A DNA stretch of 32,000 nt. It comes from Candidatus Thorarchaeota archaeon. GTDB lineage: Archaea; Asgardarchaeota; Heimdallarchaeia; Hodarchaeales; Hodarchaeaceae. The notes below the pieces were generated by a model that was given only the letters and a program-made list of their open reading frames with translations, made no database searches and had not been told where the DNA came from. The first letter of the stretch is position 1. Each line of letters opens with the position of its first letter. Both the position numbers and the translations under genes were made by a program. Positions 6,694 to 32,000 of the stretch are shown here, in pieces. The stretch spans positions 420,563 through 452,562 of the forward strand of contig JBHLRO010000002.1 of assembly GCA_048882505.1 (NCBI GenBank). The letters are read 5' to 3'.

Positions 6694-7140
6694 TCATTTG
6701 TGATCCAATTTTATATGCTTCAGTTCAATGCCTGCGGATCGGGCAGCATCAAAAATCCGATCATCATGATAAAATTCACCATAGACGACTTTTGTTATTC
6801 CTGCATTCGCCAATAACTTGAAACACGTCCAACAAGGCGATGCCGTTATATAGATCTCTGCCTTTTCCACGGTAACACCATTTTTTGCAGCCTGGGCAAT
6901 AGCATTAGATTCTGCATGAACTGTTCTCACGCAATGCTTTCCCGTCTCGTCCATCATGTGACCCACATCATCACAATGAGCCAGGCCACGAATAGAACCA
7001 TTATACCCCGTGGAAAGAATGGTTTTATCGCGAACAATAACAGCACCAATATTCTTTCTATCGCAGGTAGCACGTGTAGCCACTTGATGAGCTATTCGCA
7101 TGAAATAATGTTCCCATGTGTTTCTAGGTTTTTTCTCCAT
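6694..7140 (-). CDS. dCMP deaminase (ComEB-like, Zn-dependent cytidine deaminase fold)
   Basis: RATCDRKNIGAVIV, STGYNG, TVHAESNAI (HAE) and SPCWTC (PCxxC) motifs. Confidence 0.9.
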   Translation of the reverse strand: MEKKPRNTWEHYFMRIAHQVATRATCDRKNIGAVIVRDKTILSTGYNGSIRGLAHCDDVGHMMDETGKHCVRTVHAESNAIAQAAKNGVTVEKAEIYITASPCWTCFKLLANAGITKVVYGEFYHDDRIFDAARSAGIELKHIKLDHK

Positions 7141-7985: not shown

Positions 7986-10007
7986 GTGCAGACGAGTTCG
8001 AAGGGATGCCAATCAATGGGTTCGGCAACTAAATCTCGAAATAAAGTGGAAGAAATCAAGAAGCTAGCCGATCAAATCCTTTTTCACAAAAAAAAGTACT
8101 ATGACGGCGAACCTGTTATTTCTGATGAAGCTTATGATTCACTTGAAGATAAACTTCGGAAACTTGATCCGACCAACCCCGTTCTGTTTATGGTGGGTAA
8201 TAATGAAGCAGGAAAGGTGTTTCATGACCCCCCCATGCTTTCGAGCCAAAAAACAACGAGTATTGATGATGTCGTGAAATGGAGCGGGGGACGAGACCTC
8301 ATGGTTGGAAATAAGATTGATGGAGTATCCTTATCATTAATCTATGAAAACGGTAGGCTTATCCAAGCGGCCACCCGTGGAAATGGTACCATGGGAGATG
8401 ATACGACTATTGCAGCAATGAAAGTGACTGCCATCCCTAAATCGGTCCCTGAAATCACCCTTAGGCTCAATATCAGAGGGGAGCTATTTATGCGGCTCTC
8501 TGAATTCGCTCGTATTAAAAAAACGGAATCGGATCAGTATAGCAGCCCGAGGAATCTAACAGCAGGGACCATAAAGCAAAAAGATCTTGGCTTACTGGAT
8601 AAGCGAGTTCTTTCGTTTGGTGCGTTTGAACTCCTCGGATTAAGGGATGAGGAAGCAACTCTGGAAGAGAAAGTTGATCTCTTGCTCGAATGGGGATTCG
8701 AAACCACCGAATTCAAACTGTTAAAGTCTCCCTCAAAAGAGTCTATCGAAGCCCTTTATCGGAACACGGTATCAGCACGAGGGAACCTTGATTTCGAAAT
8801 AGACGGGTTAGTTCTAAAGTATAACGATGCCAAAGAACGAGCCAACGCGGGCGCAACGGCTCATCATCCTCGATGGATGATGGCACTAAAATTCCGAAGT
8901 CAAGGAAAACTATCACAAGTTAACAGTATCACCTGGCAGGTTGGGAGATTAGGAACGATAACACCTGTGGCTGAATTGGAGCCAGTTGAAGTAATGGGAG
9001 CCGTTATCCAGAGAGCTACGCTACATAATGCTGATTTCCTAGAAAGCCTTGATGTTGCACCAGGAGATAGCGTCTGGGTTATCAGATCCGGCGATGTTAT
9101 ACCGAAAATCACTGAGGTGGTTGAAAAGGGCCCTAATAGCGTGTTACTGCCATCTCGATGCCCAAGCTGTGACTCAAAACTACGACGTGACGGTGTCAAT
9201 TTGCTCTGCGCTAGCCCAATATGTCGCGACAGAGAAATCCAACGAATCCGTCACTGGATTAAAATTACAGATATTAAAGGACTAGGCACCAAGAATGTTG
9301 CCAAATTGTATGACAACGAGCTGATAAGACATTTCGCAGACCTTTATGACAAAAACCTGACCGAGAGAAAACTGGTTTCATTATTAGGAAAAAACGGGTC
9401 CAAAATCTTCCAAAGTATTCAGGAGACTAAGAACATACCCTTCCACCTGTTTCTTGCAGGTTTGGGCATTAAAACTTTAGGAAATCAGATGGCTAAAGTT
9501 CTCACAAAGCACTTTCCTACATACGAGGCCTTGAAAAATGTAACTGCTGATCAGTTGATGGAAATAGAGGGGATTTCAGAGATCACCGCCAGGAAGATTC
9601 TTGAAGGGCTCCATGATCCCATGTTGGCTGATCACTTGCTTGAGAAGGGAGTAATGATTTCTGAAGGTCCGAAGATATCAAAGAGGGAGTCTCAATCCCC
9701 AACGCGACTAACGAATTTCTTTGAATCACAAGACAAGTCCCCAGAATACGAAATTCGATCTCAAGAACCAGAAAATTTAGAGGATTTACCCAAGGTTTAT
9801 GTTACAGGTGCGATTCCTGGGATGACAAAGAAAGAAGTTCAAACTTTTCTAGAGCAACATAATTACGAATGGGCTGGAATATCAAAAAAACTAACGCTTC
9901 TCATCGTTGGGGAAAAACCAGGCAAGAATAAGCTAGAAAAAGCACAAAAATATGGTATACCTCAAAAATCCTGGGAAGATTTCATGAAAGAACTTCGCCA
10001 GCGATAA
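7986..10007 (+). CDS. ligA: NAD+-dependent DNA ligase (bacterial LigA type); probable start ATG 8016
   Basis: Domain Ia YYDGEPVISDEAYDSL, adenylation motif KIDG, ATRGNG, RGE, DGLVLK, OB-fold WQVGRLGTITPVA, RATLHN, RSGDVIP, Zn finger CPSC...C...C, HhH repeats (GLG, IEGI) and a C-terminal BRCT domain (VYVTGAIPGMTK...KLEKAQKYGI). Confidence 0.97.
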   Translation: MQTSSKGCQSMGSATKSRNKVEEIKKLADQILFHKKKYYDGEPVISDEAYDSLEDKLRKLDPTNPVLFMVGNNEAGKVFHDPPMLSSQKTTSIDDVVKWSGGRDLMVGNKIDGVSLSLIYENGRLIQAATRGNGTMGDDTTIAAMKVTAIPKSVPEITLRLNIRGELFMRLSEFARIKKTESDQYSSPRNLTAGTIKQKDLGLLDKRVLSFGAFELLGLRDEEATLEEKVDLLLEWGFETTEFKLLKSPSKESIEALYRNTVSARGNLDFEIDGLVLKYNDAKERANAGATAHHPRWMMALKFRSQGKLSQVNSITWQVGRLGTITPVAELEPVEVMGAVIQRATLHNADFLESLDVAPGDSVWVIRSGDVIPKITEVVEKGPNSVLLPSRCPSCDSKLRRDGVNLLCASPICRDREIQRIRHWIKITDIKGLGTKNVAKLYDNELIRHFADLYDKNLTERKLVSLLGKNGSKIFQSIQETKNIPFHLFLAGLGIKTLGNQMAKVLTKHFPTYEALKNVTADQLMEIEGISEITARKILEGLHDPMLADHLLEKGVMISEGPKISKRESQSPTRLTNFFESQDKSPEYEIRSQEPENLEDLPKVYVTGAIPGMTKKEVQTFLEQHNYEWAGISKKLTLLIVGEKPGKNKLEKAQKYGIPQKSWEDFMKELRQR

Positions 10008-27660: not shown

Positions 27661-29556
27661 TTGTTCCATACAAGATGTGACGAAATGAAGCCAGTCAAAC
27701 CCTTATTCTACGATGAGTTTAGACTAGCCACCTTGGAACAACGAGAAAACACGATATTGGCATATTTGGACGAGTTTTTCGATACAGAAAGTAACTACCT
27801 CGTCTATGGAAAATTGTTCTCTCACATGGTCACCGGTAGAATGGTCGAATTCGATGAAAGTCTGCGAGAGGCGTTTCATTTCCAAAAAAACTGTGCTCAA
27901 GTATTTAAGACTTTTTATAATCGAGTTTTGGCCCAGACAAAGAACGAGCGGGAAGCAGAAGTTAGGACAGCAAAGATCATGTGGAACTTTATCGATGAAA
28001 ATCGATTTGATGAAGCCCTTCGACTTTGTCTTCCTGAAGACGATCCAAACCAACAACTCAGTCCAGAAAAACAACAAAAATTCATTCACCAGTTTGATGT
28101 CGTTCAGAACCTGATAAGAATCGTACAGGGGGATGCCTTAAAATCTGCGCCTCCACTTGCCGCCTATCTCGAGGCTGTCAATTTTGCTACCAAAGCTTTG
28201 GATAACTACCGAATGAACAAAATCAAGAGAGCGGTGGCTTTTTTTGAGCTTGCTGTGAATAAAATCATTGAATTTGACCGCGAAACAGCTGCCAAGTTTG
28301 CAGGCCTAGTAGGGGCTCTACTTGCTCAGAAATCAGGCTTGGCATCAAAGGGCTTGTATTTTCTCCATCGAACCGAACGTTTACTGCAATCGATGAATGA
28401 TACAGCCAAAAAACTCCAATTTCAGGAGATGGCCTCTTCATACTGGACTCTAGGATTGTTCACGAAAACTCTGGAGAAACTAATGCAGGAATTGGAGCTT
28501 CATAAAGAGGCAAGGTCATCTATCGGGATACAACAAACCCAGGAACATTTGAGCATCTTTTACAGGAAGTTGAACCGATATTTAGATTCACATGATTGGG
28601 CTCTTCGGGCTTTAAGGTCGACAATTCAGGCCGAGGGGAAGGAGGATCCCACCAAGGGCTTTCGTTTCTTCCAGAGTAATGTGAATTACGCTAAATCATT
28701 GATCGGTCTTAATTCCTGGGATAAGGCAGAAAAACATCTAGACTATGCAGAAAAAGCCATAAGTCAACTAGAATTCACAACAACACCACGTCACCAAGCC
28801 CAACTTGAAATTGCACATTTAAAGGGACTGATCGCAATATTTACAGGTGATCTGGATAGTGCACAGAGCTATTTCGCCAAAAGGCTGACTTTTCCTCGCC
28901 AATTGGACCCAATACTCCCTTTGTACTCTCAGTTTTTGCGATCTGAGGCGATGATGTATCGTAATAAACGTGACTTTCCGAAAGCTATTGAAACTCTCCA
29001 ACCTTTGTTTCAGGAAAAGCATGCTGTAAATCCTCAGAATGTAGCCCTTCTTTCGGAATTGCTGGTAATGCATTCTCACGCAAGGGAGGCACTGAGACTT
29101 CTCAAACATGCCCTAGATCTTTTGAATTCCAATTGGACCTCCATCCATACACAGTCACAGATCTATCAAAGCATAGCTTATGTTTATCTCTTAACAGGCG
29201 AATTCGAAAAAGCATCACAATGGTATCAGAGTTCCCTTGAAATAAATACTACTGATCTATCGGATCTCCGAATATCCCTTGATTCTCACATGAATTTGGC
29301 GTACATGGCAATAGAAGGACACAATAACATCGAACTGGCAACAAGACATTGCACGACCGTTGAGGAATATGCATCGGCTTCAGGATCAATCAGCGCGATT
29401 CTTGACGCTGGATTGCTTCGTGCCTATATTCTCAAACATCAGGGCAACGACGAAGCCACGGAACGGATGATTCAACGTGTGGCCAATGAGGCCAATGGGT
29501 TTCGGATCAGCTATATCCAAGAAAAAGCAAAATTCCTTCTAAGCCATTTAACTTAA
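27661..29556 (+). CDS. TPR/alpha-solenoid repeat protein (start TTG 27661 or ATG 27685)
   Basis: Repeated amphipathic helix pairs (WDKAEKHLDYAEK, GDLDSAQSYF, DFPKAIETL, GEFEKASQWYQSSLEI). Its stop overlaps the rfcL stop (TTAA). Confidence 0.8.
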   Translation: MFHTRCDEMKPVKPLFYDEFRLATLEQRENTILAYLDEFFDTESNYLVYGKLFSHMVTGRMVEFDESLREAFHFQKNCAQVFKTFYNRVLAQTKNEREAEVRTAKIMWNFIDENRFDEALRLCLPEDDPNQQLSPEKQQKFIHQFDVVQNLIRIVQGDALKSAPPLAAYLEAVNFATKALDNYRMNKIKRAVAFFELAVNKIIEFDRETAAKFAGLVGALLAQKSGLASKGLYFLHRTERLLQSMNDTAKKLQFQEMASSYWTLGLFTKTLEKLMQELELHKEARSSIGIQQTQEHLSIFYRKLNRYLDSHDWALRALRSTIQAEGKEDPTKGFRFFQSNVNYAKSLIGLNSWDKAEKHLDYAEKAISQLEFTTTPRHQAQLEIAHLKGLIAIFTGDLDSAQSYFAKRLTFPRQLDPILPLYSQFLRSEAMMYRNKRDFPKAIETLQPLFQEKHAVNPQNVALLSELLVMHSHAREALRLLKHALDLLNSNWTSIHTQSQIYQSIAYVYLLTGEFEKASQWYQSSLEINTTDLSDLRISLDSHMNLAYMAIEGHNNIELATRHCTTVEEYASASGSISAILDAGLLRAYILKHQGNDEATERMIQRVANEANGFRISYIQEKAKFLLSHLT

Positions 29557-31136
29557 ATTTCCGATGAGAAAAAATCAGTGAGTGATTTTTCCTTTTTCTT
29601 TGCCCTTTTCTTCTTCTTTTTACGATTTTCATGGCTTGTTGGAGGTTGTGAGTTTTCTAAGTTCTTGTCATCAGTTGATAGATGGTTATTATCGATTCTG
29701 TTTGTTTCTTGTATAGTCCCAGGTTTTTGATCCGAGATTTTTTGCTGGCTGGTAATTTCTTGCAAGATAGTTGGATCAATCTCCCGCCTGATGACCCTTT
29801 CTACTGAAGGATAAAGTGTGCGGATGATCTTCTTTATTTCACGGTTTGTCTGTTTTTGTTTGCAGAGGTGATCAATCTCTCCATTCCATACTATTCTCAT
29901 CTGGCGTTTTCCAGGCGCAATATCAAAGAATCGAAAATCGAGCGCAAGATGCGCCGCCATTTCAGCGTTATTTTCGAAAATAACCTTTATATATGGAAGA
30001 TAAATGTTCAAAGCATCTTTTTCTGAGATATTACATACTCTAGCGACTTTTAACGCAATTTTCCTTTTTCTTCTTAATCTGGAAAGGAGGATCCAATATT
30101 GTGGCACCTGAAGACGAAAATCAGGAAATGTAGGGGAGTTCTCATGGGATGGAACGAAGTTTGCCAAATTTCGCGTGATAAAATTATAAAAATAGCTCAG
30201 TTGGTTCCAAAACCGTTGTCTTTGGGCACGTGTTAAGGCTAAATCAGCCTGTGCGAGGATGTCATAGATCTTGGCAATGGTGGTGTAGCTGTTTCGGGGC
30301 AGATAATCAATGGCGAGATCGCGGAGAATAAGCAGTAATTTACTGTAGGTCATATCACTAAGTTGACGAGTCAATTCGTGCGCTTTATCACCGTCGCGTG
30401 CAATAAAAATGGTATCAAGAAATTCCTTGGTAGCAACCATTTGATCTCGAAAAGAAAGCACGCTAATATCGTCTGGTGTGATCTGACTTCTTTCCGATGC
30501 GATTGTTTGAAAAGAATTGATCGATCCTCTGATGTCATTTTGGCTTTTTTCGATAATATCTAGAAGAACTTCATCCGAGGCTTGAATCAGTTCTGTATCA
30601 GCTATTCTTCTCAATATACGTGCGATTTCTTGCGGTGACGGGTTTTCAAATTCCCGAAGTTCACAATGTCTTAGGAGGCTCTTGAATTTCTGTGGAGATA
30701 CATCATTGGCTGTTAGAATTATTGGAACACGGGTTTGTTCAATGATTTCAATAATTTCTCGGATTCCGCCTCTATCTGCAGTCCCGCTCAACCCGTCAAT
30801 TTCGTCAATAAGCAAAATTTGCCCAATTTTGGCTTCCAAATCTTCCTTGAGAGATCTAGAAGAAGAAGCCTGACGGATGGCTTTCAAAGATCTTTTATTA
30901 CGTTTATCACTTGCATTTACCATGACAACATCGAAATTCAATGCCGAGGCAATGGCTAGGATTGAGCTGGTCTTTCCGATGCCAGGTGGACCATGCAATA
31001 AGAGGGCCTTTTTTTCTAGCTTTTCCCGTAGGGATGGATTACGAAAGCGATTTAAATATACCACAATAGAATTAACGCTCTTCTCATTCCCCACAATTTC
31101 AGAACGCCGTGTTGGGGCATACTTCTGAACCCACAA
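29553..31136 (-). CDS. rfcL: Replication factor C large subunit
   Basis: WVQKYAP, Walker A GPPGIGKT, NASD, Walker B LLIDEIDG, PIILTAND, DIRGSIN, and a C-terminal basic tract plus PIP-like EKSLTDFF (29568-29591). TTG start with an upstream GAGGA. Confidence 0.95.
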   Translation of the reverse strand: MWVQKYAPTRRSEIVGNEKSVNSIVVYLNRFRNPSLREKLEKKALLLHGPPGIGKTSSILAIASALNFDVVMVNASDKRNKRSLKAIRQASSSRSLKEDLEAKIGQILLIDEIDGLSGTADRGGIREIIEIIEQTRVPIILTANDVSPQKFKSLLRHCELREFENPSPQEIARILRRIADTELIQASDEVLLDIIEKSQNDIRGSINSFQTIASERSQITPDDISVLSFRDQMVATKEFLDTIFIARDGDKAHELTRQLSDMTYSKLLLILRDLAIDYLPRNSYTTIAKIYDILAQADLALTRAQRQRFWNQLSYFYNFITRNLANFVPSHENSPTFPDFRLQVPQYWILLSRLRRKRKIALKVARVCNISEKDALNIYLPYIKVIFENNAEMAAHLALDFRFFDIAPGKRQMRIVWNGEIDHLCKQKQTNREIKKIIRTLYPSVERVIRREIDPTILQEITSQQKISDQKPGTIQETNRIDNNHLSTDDKNLENSQPPTSHENRKKKKKRAKKKEKSLTDFFSSEI

Positions 31137-31148
31137 GGGTTGATTCCT

Positions 31149-32000
31149 CTATCTGCTCTGAGCTGCTACAATGAATTTCGCTAGAAACGCATCAAACTGA
31201 ACCAGAGGATTGCAACCAGCTGAGAGACGATAATCAATTTCTGATAACATTGATAGTGCTGTAAACCGCACTGTATCCGAAAATTTCTCGTTTGGAAATC
31301 GTATTAGTTCCCTATTAAGATATCTGACAATATCCTGTCCTGAGAGTCCGTACACTTCCATTAAATCTTGAAGCAGTTTCCTTGCGGTTAGGAAGTTGGG
31401 CTGGGGTTTGATCACTTCTTGGATGATTTTTCTTACTTGATCGGGCTTCACGTAACCTTGAACGGTCTGGACCGTTTTTGATGTTATCTTGGTATCCAGT
31501 ACGGAGGCGGCTTGAAGCGCGTTGATAGCTTGCCGCATATCTCCTTCAGAACTATCGTATAGTGCCTCTAATGCCTCATCATCTATTGCTAAGTCCTTTT
31601 TACCAGCAATAAATCGTAAACGTTCCATAACTTCGCCTTTTTCTAGATTACGGAACCGAAAAATAGCACATCGCGATTGAATTGGAGGGATGATCCTCGA
31701 ACTGTAATTGCAGATTAAGATAAAACGGGTAATTGCATTGTATTGTTCCATAGTTCGACGTAATGCATGCTGGGCTTCGCTGGTCATTTGATCCGCTTCA
31801 TCGAGAATAATGATTTTGAAGGCCGCAGATCCTGAGGGGATGATTCGGGCAAAATTTTTGATATCTTCGCGAACTACTCCGATTCCTCGGTCATCTGAGG
31901 CATTCAATCTCTTAACATTGGCAGTTCGGTCCCCGGGTTGGAACATTTCATTAACTATGGCCTCTGCGGTGGTAGTTTTTCCTATGCCAGGAGGACCAGC
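31149..32000 (-). CDS. rfcS: Replication factor C small subunit (5'-partial; begins beyond the window end)
   Basis: The frame is open to position 32000, reading AGPPGIGKTTTAEAIVNEMFQP (Walker A, upstream of the track's internal Met), then LNASDDRGI, ILDEADQMT, ALRRTME, IQSRCA and GDMRQAIN. Confidence 0.96.
   Translation of the reverse strand, partial: AGPPGIGKTTTAEAIVNEMFQPGDRTANVKRLNASDDRGIGVVREDIKNFARIIPSGSAAFKIIILDEADQMTSEAQHALRRTMEQYNAITRFILICNYSSRIIPPIQSRCAIFRFRNLEKGEVMERLRFIAGKKDLAIDDEALEALYDSSEGDMRQAINALQAASVLDTKITSKTVQTVQGYVKPDQVRKIIQEVIKPQPNFLTARKLLQDLMEVYGLSGQDIVRYLNRELIRFPNEKFSDTVRFTALSMLSEIDYRLSAGCNPLVQFDAFLAKFIVAAQSR

Follow-up and report, generated by a model that had tools for sequence, protein, structure and literature searches.

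How does a DNA ligase of bacterial type find its place in an archaeal replication machinery? Fitting a horizontally acquired enzyme into a multiprotein machine is generally considered difficult. The 32,000-nucleotide stretch of DNA analysed here (the window; assembly GCA_048882505.1 of a Candidatus Thorarchaeota archaeon in the order Hodarchaeales, contig JBHLRO010000002.1, positions 420,563 to 452,562 of the forward strand) carries ligA, which encodes an NAD-dependent DNA ligase with bacterial enzymes as its best solved relatives, and also carries clamp-loader genes. An earlier note on this DNA, made from the letters alone, proposed that the acquired LigA had gained a peptide for docking on the sliding clamp PCNA, in the linker between its last helix-hairpin-helix (HhH) and its BRCT domain. 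Our analysis supports this proposal, and each computational check that the note had suggested came out in its favour. The motif is conserved, is predicted to be unburied and is modelled into the PCNA pocket; its recurrence on C-terminal tails, its likeness to the tails of native PCNA clients and a genome in which no beta clamp was found all agree with a docking role. We consider it likely that the linker motif is a degenerate short linear motif of the PCNA-interacting peptide (PIP) type, lacking the usual Gln, that tethers a bacterial-type LigA to the archaeal PCNA ring.

The linker motif and its conservation

The motif, QSPTRLTNFF, is encoded on the plus strand exactly where it had been placed, at 9693-9722, with its core LTNFF at 9708-9722 (L565, F568 and F569). 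Residues are numbered throughout in the 663-aa product P0001, which begins at an ATG at 8016, ten codons after the GTG start of the 673-aa reading frame (7986-10007, plus strand). The linker was said to be long and probably disordered, and the structure prediction bears this out. Forty-six residues lie between 'LLEKGV', in the helix after the last HhH, and 'KVYVTG', the first BRCT strand, and an AlphaFold2 model built with 91 orthologues (mean predicted local distance difference test, pLDDT, 90.3) drops below 50 solely at residues 552-588 (9669-9779, plus strand), a predicted-disordered linker of about 37-45 aa. That this linker is usually short in bacterial LigA also held for the enzyme of Thermus filiformis, in which some 10-20 residues join HhH to BRCT; compared with bacterial-type LigA, about 25-30 residues have been added here, in a segment predicted to be disordered. 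The sole helix predicted within residues 552-588 is a single turn, of the kind usual in PIP boxes, formed by LTNFF itself (565-569) in the middle of the insert. The motif stands in the only low-confidence segment of the model, and is thus exposed in a disordered insert and not buried in the HhH or BRCT fold.

The motif is also kept among relatives. With the pattern [LIM]xx[FWY][FWYLIMV], it was found in the linkers of 83 of 116 full-length LigAs of the Asgard clade; after each linker had been shuffled, matches averaged 7.8 and never exceeded 15 of 116. The motif is anchored on Leu in 83 of 83, and Asp or Gln stands at +2 in 60. The aromatic position is Phe in 73, Tyr in 7 and Trp in 3, and the position after it is Ile (34), Leu (28), Phe (14) or Trp (6) in 82 of the 83. 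Gly, Thr or Ser directly precedes the Leu, and a Lys/Arg-rich run lies 4-12 residues upstream; outside this run the flanks are variable, with no residue shared by more than 28 of the 83 linkers. What the orthologues keep, then, is L-x-x-F-[FIL] within an otherwise variable linker. The motif was found in none of 140 representatives of more distant LigA clusters (34-46% identity; median linker 17 aa). These stand at the same distance as the solved bacterial LigAs, and because of that distance we infer that the sister group of the Asgard clade is bacterial. One metagenomic member of this sister group, P0133, has a 66-aa basic, Pro/Ala-rich linker between HhH and BRCT with the sequence RQGTLDVLVG, a possible Gln-containing, non-aromatic PIP-like variant.

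The published PIP consensus is Qxx[I/L]xxFF, and that of the bacterial beta-clamp motif is QL(S/D)LF (PMC9690074). In the LigA of the window the canonical Gln position is occupied by Pro, and position 8 is Phe. Among the 83 orthologues the Gln position is Thr in 18, Lys in 18 and Ser in 10, and Gln is not among its six commonest residues. These features lead us to read the LigA motif as a degenerate, Gln-less PIP. In a 92%-identical orthologue the core RLTNFF becomes RLTDFF, identical to the core found in NreA (see below).

Four of the 33 clade LigAs that lack the linker motif bear such a motif at the other end of the BRCT domain. The linkers of these four are short, and an extension of 39-46 aa after BRCT closes with a terminal L-x-x-[FY]-F (the endings are DLEDFF, RLTDYFEK, DLSKFF and GLNEFFS). 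A tail motif likewise occurs in the species-representative genomes G038 and G042, and a more distant Promethearchaeota LigA, P0128, ends in TLDNFFT after its BRCT domain; the five tails are some 30-45 aa long. We built a FastTree phylogeny without the linker and tail columns, in which root and direction of change are not established. It recovers the Asgard LigA clade with a support of 99, and both basal branches of the clade carry the linker motif. At least three origins are required for the tail versions, and about ten changes for the linker state. Most simply, these patterns would mean that the linker motif was gained early, was lost repeatedly and was invented anew on the tail several times. 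Its origin probably lies early in the history of the Asgard LigA clade, once the gene had arrived from bacteria.

Recurrence bears on a different explanation, in which L-x-x-F-F is intramolecular or structural, packing on BRCT or HhH or regulating domain closure, or is inherited sequence without a partner. Such a role would sit well with the 29 of 116 clade members that function without the motif. However, AlphaFold2 leaves the motif undocked in its low-confidence segment, the motif is conserved while its flanks vary, and reappearance on a C-terminal tail in at least three lineages is not predicted by intramolecular packing. We regard this explanation as quite improbable, and return to the reading of the motif as a PCNA-docking peptide.

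Proposed docking on the archaeal clamp

The genome (4.3 Mb in 83 contigs, 94.6% complete) encodes a canonical PCNA (L001, product P0270, G000:C67) and a divergent PCNA-like protein, L002, besides Fen1, several family-B polymerases and RNase HII. We modelled residues 1-260 of the canonical PCNA (40-row alignment) with residues 546-594 of LigA (91-row alignment). The complex had a median score of 0.76, compared with 0.00 for the best of three controls; a score at this level was reached by 58 of 80 solved complexes and 2 of 110 mismatched pairs, counts that hold only roughly for models with alignments of their own. Runs shared at least 60% of their contacts, and the pLDDT of the partner was at least 44. 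Confident contacts join LigA 558-569 to PCNA residues 43, 46-50, 130, 135, 235-236 and 252-259, with Leu565 and Phe568 deepest. From an alignment with other PCNAs and what is known of the human PCNA pocket, we take these PCNA residues to make up the hydrophobic pocket, the connector loop between the domains and the C-terminal strand; in the model, Leu565 and Phe568 enter the pocket beneath that loop. Modelling with the host PCNA, which the earlier note had named as a check, thus puts the peptide in the pocket where PIPs normally bind, and the expected error is low.

The same PCNA ends in a conserved tail of about 30 aa, strongly acidic and with a conserved Tyr/Trp, seen in 40 of 40 aligned Hodarchaeales homologues. 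This tail may pair electrostatically with the basic stretches ahead of the PIP-like motifs.

The motif might dock on another hub than canonical PCNA, be it the L002 paralogue, a checkpoint-clamp-like ring or some other protein that binds FF peptides. A second PCNA-like reading frame does exist: L002 (G000:C11:116797-119485) encodes 280 aa, scores 23.7-25.1 bits to PCNA_N, has an E of 3.8e-8 to the best solved PCNA and may assemble into a clamp of its own or join a heteromer. The missing Gln would also be consistent with a different partner, as would the overlap of PIP-like motifs with other motif classes (PMC9690074). Against this, the same motif stands at the ends of classical PCNA clients in this genome, and the model with canonical PCNA uses the canonical pocket. 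A partner other than canonical PCNA therefore seems unlikely to us, and canonical PCNA remains the partner that we prefer.

A clamp-binding motif could also have been brought in with the gene, as a relic of binding to the bacterial beta clamp, which some bacterial LigAs, including those of E. coli and H. pylori, do contact (PMC9690074, PMC4976356). Yet the beta-clamp consensus QL[SD]LF does not fit the motif and the pattern is absent from the linker; insert and motif occur in none of the 140 more distant LigA representatives; and the beta-clamp family PF00712 was not found in the 94.6%-complete genome. On these three counts we rejected a beta-clamp relic, which we find barely credible, in favour of a PIP-type peptide that docks on PCNA.

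PIP-like tails on other proteins

If LigA docks on PCNA through this motif, related peptides on its fellow clients provide the natural comparison. We searched the last 14 residues of every open reading frame in the genome for L-x-x-F-[FLIW] and submitted the matches to Pfam. The tails fit [KR]-x-[ST]-L-x-[DEQ]-F-[FL]. They include Fen1 (ARQSLDQFF), two family-B polymerases (RQNLNQFF and QINLMEFFT), NreA (RQKRLTDFF) and the large subunit of replication factor C (RFC-L); a C-terminal PIP has been reported for the NreA family (PMC7776575). Further PIP-like C-termini belong to a SRAP protein, a Y-family polymerase, an HhH-GPD glycosylase, an N6/N4 DNA methylase, a DUF4130 protein and a DUF72 protein. 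A 118-aa protein without a Pfam match also has a C-terminal L-x-x-F-[FL]. Judged by their tails, the SRAP protein, the methylase, the DUF4130 and DUF72 proteins and this 118-aa protein (loci L012-L019) are candidate PCNA clients beyond the classical ones.

RFC-L is encoded within the window (rfcL, 29553-31136, minus strand). Its PIP-like EKSLTDFF, preceded by a long Lys/Arg run, had been located at 29568-29591 and at the C-terminus. The coordinates are correct; the motif lies four residues before the end and not at the very end (the protein finishes ...EKSLTDFFSSEI). Directly upstream lies the gene for the RFC small subunit (31149-32000, minus strand, cut by the end of the window; Pfam Rep_fac_C, AAA and AAA_lid_RFC1), and the two genes are likely a two-gene clamp-loader operon, rfcS-rfcL (29553-32000, minus strand).

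The absence of the canonical Gln from both the LigA and the RFC-L motif had been taken to hint at a lineage-specific PIP consensus, and this side inference of the earlier note found no support. In 20 genomes of the class, nearly every Fen1 ends with the canonical Q-x-x-L-D-x-F-F. The Gln is shifted by one position (ARQSLDQFF) only in this genome (L004, G000:C80) and in its closest relative, G061. A Gln at canonical position 1 is also present in 4 of this genome's 12 PIP-like tails. Fen1 tails are canonical across the class, and there is therefore no special consensus in the lineage; a Gln-less consensus was rejected. No co-variation of the LigA motif with the local variant of the Fen1 motif was seen.

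LigA among the ligases of the class

The enzyme that bears the motif appears to be an intact NAD-dependent ligase. Its adenylation (nucleotidyltransferase) domain lies at 8223-8900 (reading-frame residues 80-305; PF01653, E 1.7e-47), its OB-fold domain at 8913-9128 (residues 310-381; PF03120, E 1.5e-29) and its HhH DNA-binding domain at 9450-9623 (residues 489-546; PF12826/PF14520, E 1.3e-12), all on the plus strand. The BRCT domain (9786-10004, plus strand) reaches 21.1 bits to PF00533, for which the cut-off is 21.3; it has high pLDDT, can be aligned with the BRCT domain of T. filiformis LigA and forms a confident beta-alpha fold at residues 593-662 of the AlphaFold2 model. Across the 91 orthologues, the KxDG motif (here KIDG; K100, D102 and G103) and the Cys4 zinc finger (C382, C385, C398 and C403) are invariant, and Y28, Y29, D37, Y40 and D41 of domain Ia, which binds nicotinamide mononucleotide and confers NAD specificity, are nearly so. 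Among solved structures, its best relatives are the LigAs of T. filiformis (E 7e-82), whose alignment begins at residue 9 and so covers domain Ia, and of E. coli (E 2e-75). The source names of the closest LigA relatives include Candidatus Hodarchaeales, Hodarchaeota, Heimdallarchaeota and Kariarchaeaceae. Because ligA shares a 452-kb contig with the RFC genes, it is chromosomal and not contamination.

Does this LigA work beside an ATP-dependent replicative ligase, or in place of one? The DNA-binding domain (PF04675) and the C-terminal OB domain (PF04679) of Lig1 were not found in this genome, even at an E of 0.1. Apart from LigA it has just one ligase, ATP-dependent and divergent (L003, 640 aa, G000:C2:121811-123730), which Pfam matches in the adenylation domain only. 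Close copies of L003 (52-97% identity) occur in seven other genomes of the class, nearly all of which are without canonical Lig1. Ligases of the L003 type have no terminal PIP-like motif, only a conserved internal F-x-F-R-K-F-F-like stretch, and six examples of canonical Heimdallarchaeia Lig1 had no terminal PIP at either end.

We surveyed ligases in 83 species-level genomes of the class (Heimdallarchaeia). LigA is present in 46 and canonical Lig1 in 64. Lig1 went undetected in 16 of the 46 genomes with LigA, versus 3 of the 37 without it, whose assemblies are 64-80% complete. A ligase of the L003 type, or a fragment of one, occurs in seven of the 16. In the remaining nine (68-93% complete), PF01068 matches the ligA gene alone, which leaves LigA as the only detectable DNA ligase. 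The survey suggests that Lig1 is dispensable in Hodarchaeales/Heimdallarchaeia where LigA is present. A linker or tail motif occurs in 14 of 15 Lig1-lacking genomes with a full-length LigA, compared with 13 of 23 clade LigAs that stand beside Lig1. We hold it to be only a little less likely than not that a PIP-armed LigA displaced Lig1 as the PCNA-coupled replicative (Okazaki-fragment) ligase in several Heimdallarchaeia lineages.

Several findings weigh against a PCNA-docking LigA and its link to the loss of Lig1. The motif departs from a textbook PIP, with Pro at the Gln position here and Thr, Lys or Ser in orthologues, and with a last position that is more often Ile or Leu than aromatic; the affinity of so degenerate a motif may be low. 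The 29 clade members mentioned above have neither a linker nor a tail motif, and one of them, G036, sits in a genome with no Lig1 detected. Complexes of PIPs with PCNA are abundant among solved structures, and the model score may partly reflect memory of them; it shows likeness to a PIP and not binding. The second PCNA-like gene, L002, could encode the real partner. Finally, the association of the motif with missing Lig1 (14/15 versus 13/23) finds no support from phylogenetically independent contrasts, which yielded 3-4 pairs, none of them informative, and had no power. Since related genomes do not count as independent data, the raw Fisher p of 0.026 cannot be trusted, and we treat the connection between motif and missing Lig1 as no more than descriptive.

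A PIP-type role for the linker would work as follows. Once a gap has been filled and the flap removed, the PCNA that remains at the nick could capture the linker peptide of LigA, much as Lig1-type ligases are recruited via PIP peptides of their own. Flexible arms of about 20 residues on each side of the motif would give the ligase the freedom to encircle the nick next to the clamp, and the basic run may add contacts to DNA or to the acidic C-terminal tail of the lineage's PCNA. Tethered in this way, LigA would serve both the joining of Okazaki fragments and the sealing of repair patches.

If this is correct, LigA would be a clean example of how little is needed to wire a bacterial ligase to the archaeal/eukaryotic sliding clamp: a few residues within a disordered insert. 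This fix was apparently reached more than once, in the linker and on the tail. Hodarchaeales/Heimdallarchaeia are central to models of eukaryote origins. Should LigA indeed have displaced Lig1, some of the archaea closest to eukaryotes would have an otherwise eukaryote-like replisome in which the ligase attached to PCNA is bacterial. The analysis also yields a directly testable pair of peptide and PCNA, and a genome-wide list of candidate PCNA clients by tail motif.

Recruitment to PCNA through a PIP box is known for ATP-dependent DNA ligases. In human LIG1 and in the ligase-PCNA complex of Saccharolobus solfataricus (PDB 7RPO/7RPW/7RPX), a flexible hydrophobic peptide likewise tethers the ligase to the front face of PCNA, and the pocket contacts predicted here are the same. 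Unlike those enzymes, LigA is of unrelated architecture (domain Ia, zinc finger, HhH and BRCT), and its peptide is internal, between HhH and BRCT, instead of N-terminal, and lacks the Gln. Bacterial LigAs (E. coli 2OWO; T. filiformis 1DGS/1V9P) share with it the order of domains and the catalytic motifs, but they and other distant LigAs have a linker of 15-20 aa between HhH and BRCT without L-x-x-F-F, and their clamp, where one is used, is the beta clamp. A further comparison is LigN of Haloferax volcanii, an NAD-dependent ligase that was acquired from bacteria and is redundant with the ATP-dependent ligase (PMC7776575, PMC1684257). LigN too is a LigA of bacterial type at work in a PCNA-using archaeon, and genetics indicates that it can carry the essential ligation function; the Asgard clade differs in being a separate lineage with a linker insert. 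The two papers on LigN do not mention PCNA or PIP in connection with it. A 2025 survey of Asgard replisomes (PMC12680538) mentions neither NAD-dependent ligases nor PIP motifs, and the literature that we searched in full text describes no PIP motif on an archaeal NAD-dependent ligase.

Two minor observations concern the surroundings and the kin of ligA. Upstream of it lies a gene for a dCMP/cytidine deaminase (6694-7140, minus strand), the only other gene of nucleotide or DNA metabolism nearby. Elsewhere in the class, two genomes hold a far more bacterial-like LigA (G057:C1:363780-364511 and G082:C167:1477-2232), which scores about 311 bits to PF01653, versus about 165-200 for the Asgard clade; the copy in G057 is additional to one of the Asgard type. 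These bacterial-like LigAs are a separate acquisition or contamination.

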